From: Shigella phage A2
Sequence record: OP197928
Length of the DNA: 64,000 bases
Direction: 5' to 3' (one strand)
Both the position numbers and the translations under genes were made by a program. Position 1 is the first letter of the stretch; each line of letters opens with the position of its first letter. This document shows, in pieces, positions 22,443-42,439 of this stretch. The notes beneath the pieces were generated by a model. It ran no database searches. It worked only from the letters and a program-made list of their open reading frames with translations, and was not told where the DNA came from.

Positions 22443-22708
22443 TGCTCATCCTTCAAAGTTTGGTTTACAGCTCTATTATAAATCAATTCATCATTAAGCT
22501 CAGGCAAAGACTTATGATATGTAGTTCTAACTTTATTTCCTTGCATCCAGTGCTTGATATAAATGAAACCTTGCTCTACACATTTTTTAAAAATTCGTTC
22601 GTCTTTTTGAGCTCGGAATTCTGGATTGCATCTAAAAAATTGATTTACGTGACCGTAATCACGTGTAGTATTACCTTCATTTTCATAAATAGTGTGAACG
22701 ACAAACAT
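22439..22708 (-). CDS. Hypothetical protein (30.1 position)
   Basis: 89 aa ORF translationally coupled to neighbours. Confidence 0.65.
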   Translation of the reverse strand: MFVVHTIYENEGNTTRDYGHVNQFFRCNPEFRAQKDERIFKKCVEQGFIYIKHWMQGNKVRTTYHKSLPELNDELIYNRAVNQTLKDEQ

Positions 22709-23571
22709 TAGAATGCTCCTTGGAAAATATTATCACCACTAGTAAATCTATTAAAATACCCTGCATCACCAGGCTTAGTATAACTCCACGTATGGAATGG
22801 ATTCATATGATACGGGTGTGTATAATATGGATTATATGGATGTGTATAATATGGATTATACGGATTAAATCCAGGAGTTCTCCAGGTAGTGTTCCAACGA
22901 AAAGAATCGTTTTTAACCATCTTCTCAATTACATCTTTTATAGCTTTTTCACTATCAAAACTTTCTTTATTTTCCTTCGGTGAAAAAAGCTTATTTTCTA
23001 CATCATTCCATGTATAAACTCGCTGAGCGGTTTTTGGAATATTGTCACGCTCTCCTCGCGCCATCCAATAAACAGGAACATTTAATATTTCACTCGCATG
23101 ATCGCAGTGGTGAGCAAGATCGTCAATATAACAAATTACGTTATATTTCTCTTTTGCCTTTTTGAATAACTCTTCTTTTGAAGAATCATGACCACACATC
23201 ATTACTTCTGAGAAGGCACCAGGAAAAAGAGCATTCAAATTAAATTGACGATTCAACAGAGCGTCAATAGAATCACCCAACGCTGTAACAGCTACAAAAT
23301 TATAATCTTCTTTTAATTTGTTAATTACGCACAGGGCGTCTTTATATGGAGACAAATAACGAATAAAATCTGAACGATTGTATTTTTCAATTAACTTGAC
23401 GCCAAGTTCTTCATCACAATTAAAGAGTTTACCCGGAGAAATAAATTTCTCATCTTGGATCATTTTTAAAATATGTTCTAACGGAAGATTATATTTCTGA
23501 GCAAAATAAGGAAGGCCTGATTGCCAGCTTAAACATACTCCATCAATATCAGTTAAAATAGTAGGCTTCAT
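22708..23571 (-). CDS. HAD-like hydrolase domain protein with C-terminal Tyr/Pro-rich tandem repeat (30.2 position)
   Basis: 287 aa; N-terminal LTDIDGV (HAD motif I-like); C-terminal NPYNPYYTHPYNPYYTHPY. Confidence 0.7.
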   Translation of the reverse strand: MKPTILTDIDGVCLSWQSGLPYFAQKYNLPLEHILKMIQDEKFISPGKLFNCDEELGVKLIEKYNRSDFIRYLSPYKDALCVINKLKEDYNFVAVTALGDSIDALLNRQFNLNALFPGAFSEVMMCGHDSSKEELFKKAKEKYNVICYIDDLAHHCDHASEILNVPVYWMARGERDNIPKTAQRVYTWNDVENKLFSPKENKESFDSEKAIKDVIEKMVKNDSFRWNTTWRTPGFNPYNPYYTHPYNPYYTHPYHMNPFHTWSYTKPGDAGYFNRFTSGDNIFQGAF

Positions 23572-24032
23572 AGAGAGTCTCTTAATAGATTTAACACATC
23601 AATAAATTCAGCTTCGGTTAGTATTGTATCATCTTTTGTTAGACCACTAGCCATGCTGTGCTTCAAAACTTTTCCTTTCGAGGCTTGTAATGCATCGCGA
23701 AAGCCCTTGTTTTGGAACGCTGCTTCAAAATATGCATTTGTGTATAATTCTTTCCATGCTTCGGAATATCTTGAAAACGGAGTTCCAAGCCAGAACAACG
23801 TGCCACGGTCCTGAGCTCTAGCATAAGCTCGTCCAGCTTGTTGGGCGGCAAGCCCGGATAACCCAAATATACGACGCTGTTGTTCAACATTTTTCACCTT
23901 GCATCCTTGGAGGAATCCTTCGAGACCTCCAAATTGGATACCGTCCATAACAAAAGGCCATTGGGCGAAATTACTTAATGCACATGATGGCCATCTAAAA
24001 TTGCTTCTAATCTCTAGCTCAGACATTTTCAA
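23568..24032 (-). CDS. NADAR-like (YbiA/DUF1768-type) protein (30.3 position)
   Basis: 154 aa; remembered YbiA signature SNFA-WP-x4-DG-x7-E-x-F-Q-x2-K matched by LSNFAQWPFVMDGIQFGGLEGFLQGCK. Confidence 0.65.
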   Translation of the reverse strand: MKMSELEIRSNFRWPSCALSNFAQWPFVMDGIQFGGLEGFLQGCKVKNVEQQRRIFGLSGLAAQQAGRAYARAQDRGTLFWLGTPFSRYSEAWKELYTNAYFEAAFQNKGFRDALQASKGKVLKHSMASGLTKDDTILTEAEFIDVLNLLRDSL

Positions 24033-24234
24033 TACTTATAATTTCAACATCAGCCCAATGACCATAACTTGGTAAACGGTCTTCAATAGATAATCCGCCA
24101 TCATATTTAAGCATTTTAATTGTCATAATATATGGCTCTAAATGGTCTTCAGTGAGCGGAGAGACATCAGTCACACGATAAGTAACTTCGACCATTTCCG
24201 TGCCCAGTAATTTCTGGATTAATTTCTTAAACAT
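24019..24234 (-). CDS. Hypothetical protein
   Basis: 71 aa ORF in operon context. Confidence 0.6.
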   Translation of the reverse strand: MFKKLIQKLLGTEMVEVTYRVTDVSPLTEDHLEPYIMTIKMLKYDGGLSIEDRLPSYGHWADVEIISIENV

Positions 24235-28082: not shown

Positions 28083-28315
28083 AGTACGCCATACACCCTT
28101 TGTGCTTCAACTAATCCATCAAAATCCAGTTTAAGATGCGATATTTGATCGCCATCACCTGGATTCACAATTACTAATACTGAACGAGGAGTTTCGGTAA
28201 TAACACGAACCGATGTTTCAGGAAATCGTTCAGAAACCTTATTTACTAATTCCTGTGCAAATAGTTTAACTTTTTCTTGGAATTCTTTAACAGTAATTGG
28301 TTTTTCACTTAGCAT
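28079..28315 (-). CDS. Hypothetical protein (cd.x cluster)
   Basis: 78 aa ORF. Confidence 0.6.
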   Translation of the reverse strand: MLSEKPITVKEFQEKVKLFAQELVNKVSERFPETSVRVITETPRSVLVIVNPGDGDQISHLKLDFDGLVEAQRVYGVL

Positions 28316-28836
28316 GTTGATCCCAGCTCCTTACTTTCAACGTTTTTAACTAATTTGACAGAAACTAATTCAGCATCTTGAGTAATCATTACCGGGCCTT
28401 CTTCATACTCTTCAAGATATTCTAGAGCTTTCTTTTTAGCTTCTTCCTTCGTATCAGTTTGAGCATAGATATAAAACATACAACCAGTAATACCTACTAC
28501 TTTCCACTTAATTTCTTTATCAGTTTTAATTTCAAATTTACTGACAGAATCATCTTTTTGAACTTCTTCGAAAAAAGAATATTCTAACATATAAGCAATT
28601 GAAAATAACGGGCTAACTTTATAAGATTCGCCCATTACATCAACAGCTTTATACCAACAATCATCAATTTCGCGTTTAATGCTAATAACATTTTTCGCAG
28701 GATCTATTTTTACTTTAAATGAATTTTCCCCAATAAACTGGGCAATTCGTTTATTAGCCCCGCAAGTTTCATTAAAAATATCTTTATATCCAGCTTTAAA
28801 GCGATAAACCTTATCTTCTTCAAACCATTCGCTCAT
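28309..28836 (-). CDS. Hypothetical protein (cd.x cluster)
   Basis: 175 aa ORF; early promoter upstream. Confidence 0.65.
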   Translation of the reverse strand: MSEWFEEDKVYRFKAGYKDIFNETCGANKRIAQFIGENSFKVKIDPAKNVISIKREIDDCWYKAVDVMGESYKVSPLFSIAYMLEYSFFEEVQKDDSVSKFEIKTDKEIKWKVVGITGCMFYIYAQTDTKEEAKKKALEYLEEYEEGPVMITQDAELVSVKLVKNVESKELGSTC

Positions 28837-29378: not shown

Positions 29379-30793
<1,415 letters not shown>

Positions 30794-33840: not shown

Positions 33841-35019
33841 TTAAAAATATTTTTTAAAACTCATCATAACTTTATCATCAACATCATTATCAATCTGTGC
33901 AACAAGGTAAGATGACAGTTCTACTTCTTGCGGTGCAGATTGAACATTATCAGAATTAAGATATTCACGAATCCAAGGATATGGATGTTTAACCGGAGCA
34001 TCGGTAATTGGGCATGGAAGACCGCACTGTTTCATACGAGATACAGTTAAGTAATCAATAAAGCTCCACATGCTATTTGTATTTAATCCAGGAACATCGC
34101 CATCTTTAAATAAATGAACTGCCCAATCTTTTTCTTGGCGGTTAACTTCCATGAAAATATCAACTGCTTCTTGTTCACACTCTTTGGCAATTTTAACCCA
34201 TTCATCGCCATCAGTACCAGATTGAAGTTGACGAATAATATATTGTGTACCTTTAAGATGAAGCTGCTCATCACGTGCAATAAATTTCATAATCTTCGCA
34301 TTACCTTCCATGATTTCCATGTTCTTATGGAAGTTGAAAGTACATGCAAAGGATACATAAAAACGAATAGCTTCCAATGCGTTGATTACATGCAGACAAA
34401 GGTAAAGAGAACGCATTAGTTCGTATTTGCATTCTTCTACATGCATAAGGCTATTTGAATATGCGTCCAAATCATATTCATTCTCTGAAAAACACCTAAA
34501 AATTTCTTTTGCGTTTTCCCATTCACGAGTTTTCTCAATAACATCATCATAATAACGACCAATAGATTCAGCACGTTTCATGATAGCTTTATCTAATACA
34601 ATCTCATCAAATACCTTTGACGGATCAGTATAAAGATTTCGCATGATATGAGTATATGAACGACTGTGAATAGTTTCACTAAAAGTCCACGTAGCAACCC
34701 ATGTATCAAGGCTTGGGTCTGAAATTAATGACATAAGTACAGCAGACGGCGCACGACCCTGAATGCTATCCAAAAGTGATTGATACTTCAGATTATTAGT
34801 AAAAATATTTTGCTGATACTGAGGAAGCTTATTAAACTGTGCAGCATCCATCATCAAGTTTACTTCTTCAGGACGCCAGAAAAATGACAATTGCTTTTCG
34901 GTTAAATCTTCAAAAACTTTATGGCGTTGAATATCATAACGCGCAATACCAAGACCTGAACCGAAGAACATAGGTTCTTTTAAAACATCAACTGGATTTG
35001 TATTAAAAACTGTGCTCAT
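33841..35019 (-). CDS. nrdB: Ribonucleotide reductase small subunit, uninterrupted
   Basis: 392 aa single ORF; diiron RNR small subunit fold; no intron. Confidence 0.93.
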   Translation of the reverse strand: MSTVFNTNPVDVLKEPMFFGSGLGIARYDIQRHKVFEDLTEKQLSFFWRPEEVNLMMDAAQFNKLPQYQQNIFTNNLKYQSLLDSIQGRAPSAVLMSLISDPSLDTWVATWTFSETIHSRSYTHIMRNLYTDPSKVFDEIVLDKAIMKRAESIGRYYDDVIEKTREWENAKEIFRCFSENEYDLDAYSNSLMHVEECKYELMRSLYLCLHVINALEAIRFYVSFACTFNFHKNMEIMEGNAKIMKFIARDEQLHLKGTQYIIRQLQSGTDGDEWVKIAKECEQEAVDIFMEVNRQEKDWAVHLFKDGDVPGLNTNSMWSFIDYLTVSRMKQCGLPCPITDAPVKHPYPWIREYLNSDNVQSAPQEVELSSYLVAQIDNDVDDKVMMSFKKYF

Positions 35020-35070
35020 AAATTTTCCGCTTAGTTAATAGATAGTGACTCGTCCATGAGTCAAATTATA

Positions 35071-37335
35071 TCATAATTTACAGGATGAACAATCTTCAGC
35101 TTTTGGAGTTTCTATTTCATAATCATCAGTACCAGAACCGTCACGTGTATTATGATAATAGAAATTTTTTCCGCCAAAATACCAAAAATACAAAAGGTCA
35201 TCAATCATTATTGACATTGGAACCTTTCCTTTTGGAAAAATCTGCGGGTCATAGTATGTATTCGCCGAAGCTGATTGACATACCCATTTAAGCATAATAG
35301 CTACTTGCGTAAGATAAGGTTTATTACCTTTCTTAGCTAATTTCCACGTATAATCATAGAGGTCTATGTTATGCTCAATATTGGGCACGACTTGATTAAA
35401 GGAACCCTCTTTTGATTCTTTAACAGAGACTGGTCCACGTGGAGGCTCGATACCGTTTGTACTGTTAGAAACTTGGGAAGATGACTCACATGGCATAAGT
35501 GCTGATAATGTGCTATTACGGATGCCAAAGAGCTTAAGGTCTTCCCGCAGCGACGACCAGTCACAAACGTATTTTGGAGCTGCGATTTGGTCAATCTTTT
35601 TATTGTACCAGTCGATAGGTAATTCGCCTCGAGACCAACGAGTGTCTGAATAATATTCGCAAGGTCCTTTTTCTTTGGCGAGCTTAATGGATGCTTTAAT
35701 GAGTCCATACTGTAATCTCTCAAATAGTTCATGTGTTAAATCGTTAGCATCTTCATAAGAAGCAAAGTTACTTGCCAGCCAAGCTGCATAGTTGGTAACA
35801 CCTACGCCAAGATTTCGACGCTTTTTAGCTTTTTCTGCTTCAGGAACCGGATATCCTTGGTAATCCAAAAGATTATCAAGAGCACGAACCTGGACTTCTG
35901 CCAATTCATTAATTTTATCTTGGTCTTGCCAGTCAAAATTATCCAGTACGAATGCAGAGAGAGTACACAATCCAATTTCAGCATCAGGACTATTCACATC
36001 ATTTGTTGGAATAGCAATTTCACAGCACAAGTTACTCTGACGAATAGGTGCCTTTTCACGAATAAACGGAGTATAGTTATTCGTATTATCAATGAACTGT
36101 ACATAAATCCTTGCTGTTCCTGAGCGTTCAGTCATGAGCAATTCAAATAGTTCACGAGCTTTAATACGCTTTTTACGAATATTAGGGTCTTTTTCTGCGG
36201 CTTCATACAATTCACGGAAACGGTCTTGGTCTTTAAAATAAGAATAATAAAGCTCTCCGCCCATTTCATGGGGACTGAACAAAGTAATGTAATCGTTCTT
36301 TCCAAAACGTTCCATCATCAAATCATTCAGTTGAACACCATAATCCATATGACGAATGCGGTTTTCTTCTACGCCTTTGTTATTTTTCAAAACAAGAAGA
36401 TTTTCAACTTCCAAATGCCAAATAGGATAATAAGCAGTAGCAGCGCCGCCACGAATTCCACCCTGTGAGCATGATTTAACAGCAGTCTGAAAATGTTTCC
36501 AAAAAGGAATAACACCAGTATGGCGTACTTCACCCATGCCAATCTTAGAACCTTCAGCACGAATCATACCAACGTTAATACCAATTCCAGCGCGTTTAGA
36601 GATATATTCAACAATTGAAGCGGAAGCCTTATTGATAGACTTTAATGAATCACCTGCCTCAATAACAACGCATGAACTAAACTGCCGGGTTGGAGTACGG
36701 CAACCAGCCATAATAGGAGTTGGCAATGAAATCTGTCGAGTAGATACTGCTTCATAAAAACGGATAACGTGTTTTAATCTATCAACAGGTTCATCTTGAT
36801 GCAATGCCATTCCAATAGTCATAAATGCAAACTGTGGAGTTTCATAAATTTGACCAGTGGTTTTATCTTTAACTAGATATTTTTCTTTTAATTGCATCGC
36901 CCCGGAATAAGTAAATTCCATATCCCGCTCGTGCTTAATTTTTGATTCTAAAAATGTAATTTCTTCTGCAGAATATTTTGACAACAATTCAGGGTCGTAT
37001 TTACCTTCATTTACACAGTAAGAAATATGGTCAATAAATGAACGTGGTTCATACTGCCCATAAACATGCTTACGAAGAGCGAACATTAAACAGCGTGCAG
37101 CTACATATTGATAATCAGGCTCTTCAACTGAAATAGAATTCGCAGCAGCCTTAATTACAATGGTTTGAATGTCATCAGTTGTCATTCCATCACGGAGATA
37201 TGATTTAATATTTTCATATAATTCATAAGGATCTACAGATGTTCCTTCAGCTGCCCAAGATAAAACTTTAATAATTTTTTGCGGGTCAAAGCTCTGAGAA
37301 ACACCACTACTTTTGATAACATTAATTAATTGCAT
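35071..37335 (-). CDS. nrdA: Ribonucleotide reductase large subunit
   Basis: 754 aa; active-site NLCCEIA and C-terminal CSSCKL redox cysteines. Confidence 0.95.
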   Translation of the reverse strand: MQLINVIKSSGVSQSFDPQKIIKVLSWAAEGTSVDPYELYENIKSYLRDGMTTDDIQTIVIKAAANSISVEEPDYQYVAARCLMFALRKHVYGQYEPRSFIDHISYCVNEGKYDPELLSKYSAEEITFLESKIKHERDMEFTYSGAMQLKEKYLVKDKTTGQIYETPQFAFMTIGMALHQDEPVDRLKHVIRFYEAVSTRQISLPTPIMAGCRTPTRQFSSCVVIEAGDSLKSINKASASIVEYISKRAGIGINVGMIRAEGSKIGMGEVRHTGVIPFWKHFQTAVKSCSQGGIRGGAATAYYPIWHLEVENLLVLKNNKGVEENRIRHMDYGVQLNDLMMERFGKNDYITLFSPHEMGGELYYSYFKDQDRFRELYEAAEKDPNIRKKRIKARELFELLMTERSGTARIYVQFIDNTNNYTPFIREKAPIRQSNLCCEIAIPTNDVNSPDAEIGLCTLSAFVLDNFDWQDQDKINELAEVQVRALDNLLDYQGYPVPEAEKAKKRRNLGVGVTNYAAWLASNFASYEDANDLTHELFERLQYGLIKASIKLAKEKGPCEYYSDTRWSRGELPIDWYNKKIDQIAAPKYVCDWSSLREDLKLFGIRNSTLSALMPCESSSQVSNSTNGIEPPRGPVSVKESKEGSFNQVVPNIEHNIDLYDYTWKLAKKGNKPYLTQVAIMLKWVCQSASANTYYDPQIFPKGKVPMSIMIDDLLYFWYFGGKNFYYHNTRDGSGTDDYEIETPKAEDCSSCKL

Positions 37336-37892: not shown

Positions 37893-38753
37893 TTACACCG
37901 CCATCTTTCCTTTCAATACACCGTGGGACTGATAATCTTTGAGAACGAAATCTTTAGGCCTGAGTTTAAGAACATATTCCAATTGTTCTTTAGTAGAAAG
38001 ATAACGGAATTTATAAGGCAATCCGCCTATTACCAGTTCACAAAGCTCTTTAGGTTCACGACGCAAAATTTCTTTGCATTGTTCTACATGATTCATATAG
38101 ATATGAGTATTACCACCAGAAAATATCAAATCTCCTGGAGTAAGATTACACATCTTAGCTACAATATGAACTAACGCAGCATATGATGCAATATTAAATG
38201 GAAGGCCGAGAAAAACATCTACTGATCGTTGATACCACTGCAAATCCAAATAGCCATTACGCACATTAAACTGATAGAACATATGACAAGGCGGTAATGC
38301 CATCTGCTTGATTTCAGCTGGATTCCATGCTGAAACGATTTGACGTCGATCAGTTGGTAATTTTTTAATACGATCAATAGTTTCAACTAATTGATCCACA
38401 CCACCGAAATCACGCCATTGTTTACCATATATAGGACCAAGTTCACCACTATGATATCCTAGGTCTTTAGCCTGGTTTTCATAGTTATCGTCCCAAATAG
38501 TTTTACCTTGAATAAGACTACCATGAGTGCGAAGACGTAAATCATTAACATTGGTAGAACCGGAAATAAACCATAAAAGCTCAGCAATGCATGCATTCCA
38601 GGCGAGCTTCTTAGTTGTTACTGCAGGAAAACCTTTGGTTAAATCCCATCGTAATTTAGTACCGAACAAAGCAATTGTTCCTGTGCCCGTTCGGTCATCG
38701 GTTTCATAGCCATTTTCAAAAATGTCTTTAATTAAATCTTGGTATTGTTTCAT
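37893..38753 (-). CDS. td: Thymidylate synthase, uninterrupted
   Basis: 286 aa single ORF; catalytic PPCH motif (ALPPCHMFYQF). Confidence 0.95.
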   Translation of the reverse strand: MKQYQDLIKDIFENGYETDDRTGTGTIALFGTKLRWDLTKGFPAVTTKKLAWNACIAELLWFISGSTNVNDLRLRTHGSLIQGKTIWDDNYENQAKDLGYHSGELGPIYGKQWRDFGGVDQLVETIDRIKKLPTDRRQIVSAWNPAEIKQMALPPCHMFYQFNVRNGYLDLQWYQRSVDVFLGLPFNIASYAALVHIVAKMCNLTPGDLIFSGGNTHIYMNHVEQCKEILRREPKELCELVIGGLPYKFRYLSTKEQLEYVLKLRPKDFVLKDYQSHGVLKGKMAV

Positions 38754-38798
38754 TTAGTACCTTATATAAATTATAATACATTTTATGAAGCTAAATAA

Positions 38799-39158
38799 TC
38801 AATACGGTTTAGCATCAAATTTTCTCTCAATTTCAGGCGTGAAATATAATTCTTTACCGCGTTTGGAAAAGCGACCAATAATATGATAATTATTCTCATC
38901 AAACGTGATATTACCAATATCCATAGCTTTCAACCAAATATCGATATTTCTATCCAGCTTTATATCAAAATTCCAATACGGAGAACTATTACCGAAAATA
39001 ATGCAAGCGGATTCAGTGAAACAACTGCTATAAATCTTGTCTTTAGGAACTACTAATTGATAGACACCTTTAATAAACTGAGGACCCTGCCACTTTGGCT
39101 GTTTCGTGTCTTTTTCTAATAGAATAGGGTAATAATTAAAATTCATATTTTCCGCCAC
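38799..39158 (-). CDS. Hypothetical protein located between td and frd
   Basis: 119 aa ORF occupying a 413 bp spacer between frd stop and td start. Confidence 0.6.
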   Translation of the reverse strand: MAENMNFNYYPILLEKDTKQPKWQGPQFIKGVYQLVVPKDKIYSSCFTESACIIFGNSSPYWNFDIKLDRNIDIWLKAMDIGNITFDENNYHIIGRFSKRGKELYFTPEIERKFDAKPY

Positions 39159-39166
39159 GTGTTATT

Positions 39167-39996
<830 letters not shown>

Positions 39997-40007
39997 ATTA
40001 TCTCCTA

Positions 40008-40340
40008 TTAAAAAGGATCAGGAACATATCCACTAGCTTTAATCATTTTAATTAACGTTAACATTCCTTTGTTAACTGCTTGTGAGATTTCATCAAAAAC
40101 TTCATCATTAAAAAGTTCTAGCACACCCTTCTGAACTTTTAATTTACAGCCAACAATTTCGTCATCGCCTATAGTAAATTCATTACCGCCAATTCCACCG
40201 AAAAACTTAATTACCCCAGTTAACTGTCTTCCACGAGAATATGGGTCATGTGATAAAGTAATATGAGTCACCCCAGGTACAGTTTTAAATTGACAGCGAA
40301 TGTTTACTTGAGAAATTCCAGTTACATGAATGTCAGACAT
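40008..40340 (-). CDS. Hypothetical protein (frd.x cluster)
   Basis: 110 aa ORF. Confidence 0.6.
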   Translation of the reverse strand: MSDIHVTGISQVNIRCQFKTVPGVTHITLSHDPYSRGRQLTGVIKFFGGIGGNEFTIGDDEIVGCKLKVQKGVLELFNDEVFDEISQAVNKGMLTLIKMIKASGYVPDPF

Positions 40341-42340: not shown

Positions 42341-42439
42341 TTTTATTTCCTTTTTAATTTAATTAACAGTTGGTGCTATGACGATGTATGACCTCATAGC
42401 TGGTCAGTGAGATAATTATAATCTATTTATAATAAGCAA

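Follow-up and report, generated by a model that had tools for sequence, protein, structure and literature searches.

The small minus-strand gene adfN of Shigella phage A2 (sequence record OP197928, of which the window analysed here is a stretch of 64,000 nucleotides) raises the question of what a putative NADAR enzyme would do in a phage that also encodes ADP-ribosyltransferases a few kilobases away. The initial annotation of the sequence had recognised a NADAR core (YbiA/DUF1768-type) in this open reading frame and had suggested two possible roles, self-immunity of the phage to its own ADP-ribosyltransferase activity, or an anti-defence role against DNA ADP-ribosylating systems such as DarT. 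Our analysis indicates with high confidence that this reading frame is orthologous to T4 gene 30.3 (adfN), and its product would be a guanine-ADP-ribose DNA glycohydrolase countering the DarTG1 system. The positions of the gene, its predicted functional elements and its relevant neighbours are collected in Table 1.

Table 1. Positions within the window of adfN, of its predicted functional elements and of its neighbouring genes (aa, amino acids).
Feature	Position	Strand	Remark
Second Alt-type gene, 685 aa	16587..18644	-	42% identical to T4 Alt; PF03496 E=2.8e-20
Nearer Alt-type gene, 698 aa	18648..20744	-	70% identical to T4 Alt; PF03496 E=1.7e-37
Gene 30.2, 287 aa, predicted HAD-fold N-terminal domain and disordered tail	22708..23571	-	directly downstream of adfN, ATGA overlap
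adfN (T4 gene 30.3 ortholog), 152 aa, putative phage-type NADAR ADP-ribosylglycohydrolase	23568..24026	-	stop codon included
C-terminal alpha-helix, residues 138-151	23574..23615	-	predicted model, high confidence; frame as in T4
H123 codon CAC	23658..23660	-	invariant in 55 homologues
K43 codon	23898..23900	-	at least 90% conserved in 55 homologues
E36 codon	23919..23921	-	invariant in 55 homologues
Core NADAR motif, residues 17-43 (LSNFAQWPFVMDGIQFGGLEGFLQGCK)	23898..23978	-	contains E36 and K43
Upstream small gene, 71 aa, phrog_2042, 30.4 position	24019..24234	-	stop overlaps adfN start

The ORF of 154 aa at 23568..24032, which opens at TTG on the minus strand in the open reading frame listing, is real. 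Translation probably begins at the ATG at 24026, two codons inside the TTG at 24032, which gives a protein of 152 aa, and the T4 ortholog is annotated from the equivalent ATG at the same length. This start codon overlaps the stop codon of the upstream small gene (AATGTCTGA), and the stop codon of adfN overlaps the start codon of gene 30.2 as ATGA. Because the start and stop codons of the three genes overlap, the upstream small gene, adfN and gene 30.2 are tightly packed and are probably translationally coupled. The scan for promoters and terminators around adfN stayed at background, with 16 found as compared to 11.8 +/- 3.8 expected. Between 30.3 and 30.6 there is a single gene of 71 aa here versus two genes (30.4 and 30.5) in T4, and the stretch of about 24066..24233 is without DNA-level alignment to T4. 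The internal out-of-frame ORF 30.3', which has 75 aa in the T4 annotation, is also open in this phage (23663..23890, minus strand). Its identity to T4 is 83%, versus 97% for the overlapping adfN frame, and by this comparison the presence of 30.3' looks like passive retention and not like selection on 30.3'.

The adfN product and T4 gp30.3 (NP_049816) are of equal length and are identical at 147 of 152 positions (97%) in a gapless alignment, and none of the five substitutions relative to T4 (S67A, V82T, P89E, I104F and I125M) touches a conserved catalytic position. The Pfam family PF08010 (Phage_30_3) matched the product over the full length of the profile (positions 1-138 of 138) with E=1.5e-68 and a score of 229 bits (gathering cut-off, 36), and phrog_652 was matched as well. 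A homologue is present in 1510 phage records, nearly all of which label it 'hypothetical protein', and Escherichia virus KFS-EC3 encodes a protein that is 100% identical. Given the strength of the PF08010 match and the number of records with a homologue, the gene is therefore far beyond chance, and judged from its sequence it is the ortholog of T4 30.3. The gene order around adfN is as in T4, namely 30.4 position, 30.3, 30.2, 30.1, ligase and alt, and the alignment to the T4 genome (NC_000866) follows the order 54, alt, alt.1, 30 (ligase), 30.1, 30.2, 30.3 and, further on, rIII, 31, cd and pseT.

At the nucleotide level, an 801-base piece around adfN matched 678 phage records, the top one being Shigella phage SH-2 with 98.8% identity, and a 16-kb piece aligned collinearly, at 97-98%, with phages such as SH-2 and ime09. 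These matches identify the region as part of a T4-like genome (Tequatrovirus), from a Tequatrovirus other than T4. As compared to T4, the nrdB group I intron with I-TevIII, the nrdB.1/mobE segment, the td group I intron with I-TevI and segG are absent; the sites of the absent T4 elements lie at about 34343..34346, 35019..35075, 38204..38212 and 42403..42439. The Rfam scan of the whole window gave no RNA family and ARAGORN gave no tRNA, which is consistent with the absence of the T4 introns. On the other side, the stretches at 28309..28836 (minus strand) and at about 30473..30787, 38756..39159 and 39767..40284 are without counterpart in the aligned T4 regions, and one of these T4-unmatched stretches carries an ORF of 175 aa, flanked by a cd.2-like and a cd.3-like gene.

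The NADAR/YbiA-like family call, made originally from the letters of the sequence, proved correct, and it is borne out by family-level profiles and by the fold. The adfN product alone gave no PF08719 match in Pfam even at E<=10, no match in the PDB with phmmer and no match in NCBIfam, and PADLOC gave no match on the adfN locus. The proposed check against the PF08719 profile thus fails for the single sequence and succeeds at the level of the family, as 21 members of an alignment of 55 gp30.3 homologues (A1) matched PF08719 when they were scanned singly, the best with 1.5e-7. Of 107 homologues found in the databases, several bear the JGI name YbiA/DUF1768, and in one of them PF08010 and PF08719 occur together. 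When the A1 profile was compared with all PDB sequences, E. coli YbiA (2b3w) was the only meaningful match (E=0.0044), and this match spans the SNFA...DG...E.F.Q..KF core, the motif that the initial annotation had pointed out. Comparison of A1 with an alignment of 30 YbiA-family sequences (A2) by hhalign gave a probability of 97.3% and E=1.9e-11 over 121 columns. At the level of sequence, YbiA is the top PDB match, and it is also among the best fold matches, at about 20% identity; both a family-level profile match and a related fold are clearly present. The peptide LSNFAQWPFVMDGIQFGGLEGFLQGCK, which had been quoted as the core, is present exactly, and the later region described as KF-Q-LR-AL corresponds to AAFQNKGFRDALQAS, which hhalign pairs with AKFEQHAELRALLLAT of YbiA. 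According to the profile comparisons and the predicted model, the adfN product belongs to the gp30.3/AdfN(T4) family (PF08010) and to the NADAR superfamily, the NADAR relationship being visible only at the level of family and structure. A remote relationship that single-sequence Pfam and PDB searches miss was thus recognised from raw sequence, and the right biological role was named with it.

E36 and K43 lie within LEGFLQGCK, which fits the pattern E-x-[FY]-x-Q-x-x-K with its catalytic Glu and phosphate-binding Lys, and hhalign aligned them with E48 and K55 of YbiA. The same seven-residue spacing between Glu and Lys is found in Phytophthora PnNADAR (E43/K50) and in E. coli C7 DarG1 (E88/K95), in which these residues contact ADP-ribose and are required for activity (PMC11543638). 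The mutations E36A and K43A weaken T4 AdfN, which then gives only partial rescue (PMC11825919). A His in the last strand has been described as the signature of phage gp30.3-type NADARs, as compared to Glu in the YbiA family and Asp in the DarT1-associated/BC4488 family (PMC11543638, PMC11125620). E125 is invariant in the YbiA alignment A2, and all 55 members of A1 have His in the same strand; hhalign puts this residue (H123) one or two residues out of register with the YbiA Glu. It is the invariance of H123 and the literature, and not a superposition, that support its equivalence with the last-strand Glu of YbiA. The helix at the C-terminus is intact, and the 152 aa are free of any frameshift relative to T4. 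In RB69, a frameshift removes this helix, which renders the phage DarTG1-sensitive (PMC11825919). In the phage studied here the gene is intact and orthologous to T4 30.3, its product has the NADAR fold, and E36, K43, H123 and the C-terminal helix are all kept. In several sequenced T4-like phages, namely SV76, UGJNEcP4, vB_Eco_NR1 and vB_EcoM-RPN226 (clusters P0008, P0015, P0017 and P0055), the gp30.3 ORF is truncated or split, with lengths of 86-109 aa; these ORFs are reminiscent of the RB69 frameshift allele and may represent either loss of counter-defence or sequencing errors.

The anti-DarT defence role that had been proposed is the correct one, and it has been demonstrated experimentally for the T4 protein AdfN (PMC11825919, PMC11125620, HIDEN-SEQ preprint), so that the function of gp30.3/AdfN is already known from genetics, biochemistry and structure prediction. 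[quoted passage not shown] Johannesman et al. (Nat Commun 2025) traced the ability of T-even phages to resist DarTG1 back to gene 30.3, which was renamed adfN for anti-DarT factor NADAR (PMC11825919). In that work, T4 and T2 with an adfN deletion formed no plaques on DarTG1 hosts, RB69 was rescued by ectopic expression of adfN, and an AdfN variant cut like the RB69 allele had reduced activity. Purified T4 AdfN took ADP-ribose off DarT1-modified DNA, and DarTG2, which gives thymine-ADPr, was not countered by AdfN (PMC11825919). Independently, T4 gp30.3 was reported (Toxins 2024) to hydrolyse guanine-ADPr and not thymine-ADPr in vitro (PMC11125620). The HIDEN-SEQ transposon-sequencing preprint described that insertions in 30.3 were lost only with DarTG1 present. 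T4 AdfN fails to neutralise DarT1 in uninfected E. coli and rescues non-T-even phages only partly, i.e., the T4-type AdfN is efficient only in the context of T-even infection (PMC11825919, PMC11125620). The enzymatic activity, guanine specificity and anti-DarTG1 phenotype of the A2 protein would follow those published for the T4 protein, to which it is 97% identical. In the proposed mechanism, the DarT1 toxin of a DarTG1 host would ADP-ribosylate guanine in the phage DNA and thereby block replication, and AdfN, as a putative stand-alone N-glycosidase of the NADAR superfamily from a minus-strand block of non-structural genes, would cleave the N-glycosidic bond between guanine and ADP-ribose. 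ADP-ribose would be released and the base restored, the phage could then replicate, and AdfN would act as a phage-borne orphan antitoxin.

It is very unlikely that the main substrate is not modified DNA but a soluble derivative of ADP-ribose, for example an NAD-derived immune signal or an RNA-repair by-product. Such a role was proposed for phage NADARs from genomic context, before the experiments were done (PMC9503650), and some neighbours would suit it, since adfN shares its minus-strand block with pseT (polynucleotide kinase), about 6 kb upstream, and since Nudix and Thg1-like genes are found about 2.6 kb from the gp30.3-type NADAR of a metagenomic 308-kb jumbo-phage-like contig (L003, 9115..11294). 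However, both the DarTG1 phenotype and the direct removal of ADPr from DNA have been demonstrated for T4 AdfN (PMC11825919, PMC11125620, HIDEN-SEQ preprint), and no neighbour family is common to the 59 non-T4-like loci described below. Turnover of a soluble ADP-ribose derivative could be an additional activity of AdfN, next to the removal of ADP-ribose from guanine in DNA.

The neighbourhood of adfN had also suggested self-immunity or regulation, in which the NADAR would reverse the ADP-ribosylation of proteins or RNA by Alt (or by ModA/ModB). Two Alt-type ADP-ribosyltransferase genes are indeed located nearby on the same strand, 2.8 and 4.9 kb from adfN, and Iyer et al. (2022) placed T4-like NADARs in early regions alongside ARTs, and the same authors had already named DNA ADP-ribosylating TA systems as a possible NADAR target (PMC9503650). 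The closeness to alt, which had been taken as a functional hint, reflects T4-like synteny instead. We searched all ORFs within 6 kb at 85 gp30.3-type NADAR loci (80 from IMG/VR, 2 metagenomic and 3 from GenBank phages), and an Alt-like ORF was found at only 16 of the 85, a T4-type ligase at 25 and a gp30.2-type gene at 26, while 59 loci had none of the three within this distance. Since every one of the 16 loci with an Alt-like ORF also carries the ligase and the gp30.2-type gene, the Alt-like ORFs are parts of a single T4-like syntenic block, and the clustering of all ORFs within 3 kb at the 85 loci gave no shared family outside this block. The NADAR is present with no Alt nearby in Vibrio phage phi-pp2 and Cronobacter phage GAP161, and on the jumbo-phage-like contig L003 neither an ART nor a HAD gene was found near the gp30.3-type NADAR. 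Furthermore, the substrate described in the literature is DNA that carries guanine-ADPr, whereas Alt, by its annotation, is a mono-ADP-ribosyltransferase that modifies proteins of the host, and T4 lacking adfN, a gene non-essential on hosts without DarTG1, grows normally there, so that there is no self-toxicity to relieve (PMC11825919, HIDEN-SEQ preprint). The adjacency counts, the dispensability of adfN without DarTG1 and the DNA substrate together therefore make self-immunity highly improbable. As for the Alt genes themselves, two full-length copies stand in tandem here, as compared to T4, which has one alt and in which an old duplication has left the short remnants alt.-1 and alt.-2. The relatives that also have the second paralogue intact include ime09, teqdroes and PinkRuby. 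Residues 1-241 of the nearer Alt are almost identical to T4 Alt, and its middle and catalytic parts have diverged.

The chance that the adfN product is a YbiA-type housekeeping N-glycosidase of riboflavin-pathway intermediates is negligible, because although YbiA is the structure to which the gp30.3 family is best matched, its defining last-strand Glu is His in all 55 gp30.3 homologues, the adfN product shares only about 20% identity with it and has no NCBIfam match, and a riboflavin role lacks a rationale for a lytic phage.

A side finding concerns the gene directly downstream of adfN. The product of gene 30.2 had no Pfam or NCBIfam match, its function is unknown in PHROGs, and it is 'hypothetical' in T4. 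The HAD signature D8-x-D10, K132 and D150-D151 is invariant in 35 homologues of gp30.2, and the gp30.2 profile weakly matched the mouse 5'(3')-deoxyribonucleotidase 2jao (E=0.019). Residues 1-198 were confidently modelled, and pLDDT falls below 50 from residue 249. The Foldseek search of the PDB with this model gave 2jao as the best match (E=4e-8), and further deoxyribonucleotidases as well as HAD hydrolases followed with E of 1e-7 to 1e-6. By signature and predicted model, gp30.2 is a HAD-fold, deoxyribonucleotidase-like protein that was previously unannotated. The 3' part of the gene contains a 24-bp tandem repeat (22810..22865; 2.3 copies, 90% match), which encodes a repeated NPY(N)PYYTHPY peptide. 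The peptide lies in the disordered tail at the C-terminus, and it is in this tail that the members of the gp30.2 family, with lengths from about 196 to 347 aa, vary.

The order of NADAR followed by HAD gene is kept in Acinetobacter phage Minot and other T4-like loci. A HAD gene annotated as deoxyribonucleotidase also comes directly after the gp30.3 homologue of Vibrio phage phi-pp2, which is KVP40-like, in an unrelated neighbourhood (L010, 5007-5961), and this gene has only HAD motif I in common with gp30.2. A phmmer search with the deoxyribonucleotidase-like neighbour of phi-pp2 found it in the phi-pp2 locus only, and the two metagenomic jumbo-phage contexts had neither a gp30.2 homologue next to the NADAR nor a Pfam-recognisable neighbour. 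The linkage of NADAR and HAD genes is for the most part plain synteny, and it is absent from the jumbo-phage homologues. It is unlikely, although compatible with the gene order, that gp30.2 is the T-even factor required for full activity of AdfN(T4), or that it performs a second step of the pathway, for example on released ADP-ribose or modified nucleotides. As a candidate for the T-even factor that potentiates AdfN, gp30.2 is a cheap one to test. The labels of the adfN records noted above also show that annotation trails the literature, as nearly all of the 1510 still read 'hypothetical protein'.

Among the known systems, DarG1 of E. coli C7 and of Geobacter lovleyi (PDB 8BAT) is the DarT1-associated antitoxin. 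It has an N-terminal extension that is absent from the adfN product, in which the NADAR core begins at about residue 11 of 152, and its last strand carries Asp, whereas the adfN product has His at 123. DarG1 sits beside the DarT1 toxin gene, whereas the neighbours of adfN are the 30.4-position gene, 30.2, 30.1 and the ligase, and the ARTs near adfN are only of the Alt type (PF03496). T4 AdfN cannot replace DarG1 in uninfected cells (PMC11825919, PMC11125620). The identification of the adfN product as a DarG1 was rejected, as there is no toxin neighbour, no N-terminal extension, His in place of Asp and no PADLOC match. The action of the adfN product would be DarG1-like, with a published efficiency limited to T-even infection (PMC11825919, PMC11125620). 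E. coli YbiA (PDB 2B3W), the Phytophthora NADAR (PDB 8BAU) and the PF08719 family are about 20% identical and have Glu where the adfN product has His. The gene of YbiA is cellular and lies in an operon under LexA control, and YbiA has a role on riboflavin intermediates, whereas the adfN product belongs to a separate Pfam family, PF08010; an assignment to the YbiA-family enzymes was rejected because His replaces the defining last-strand Glu.

Other phages counter DarTG1 with orphan, guanine-specific NADARs as well. AdfN(Bas32) and AdfN(Bas60) of T5-like phages and Vequintavirinae resemble the T4 type in these respects (PMC11825919), but they belong to other NADAR clades, were independently acquired and, unlike the T4 type, neutralise DarT1 without phage context. 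AdfA (T4 61.2) and AdfM (T4 tk.4) are further anti-DarT factors of T-even phages and are different proteins (PMC11825919, HIDEN-SEQ preprint); AdfM is a macrodomain directed against DarTG2, and both genes lie outside the stretch examined here. T4 gp30.3/AdfN (NP_049816) has the same neighbours, the same E36/K43/H123 residues and the same C-terminal helix as the adfN product of Shigella phage A2.
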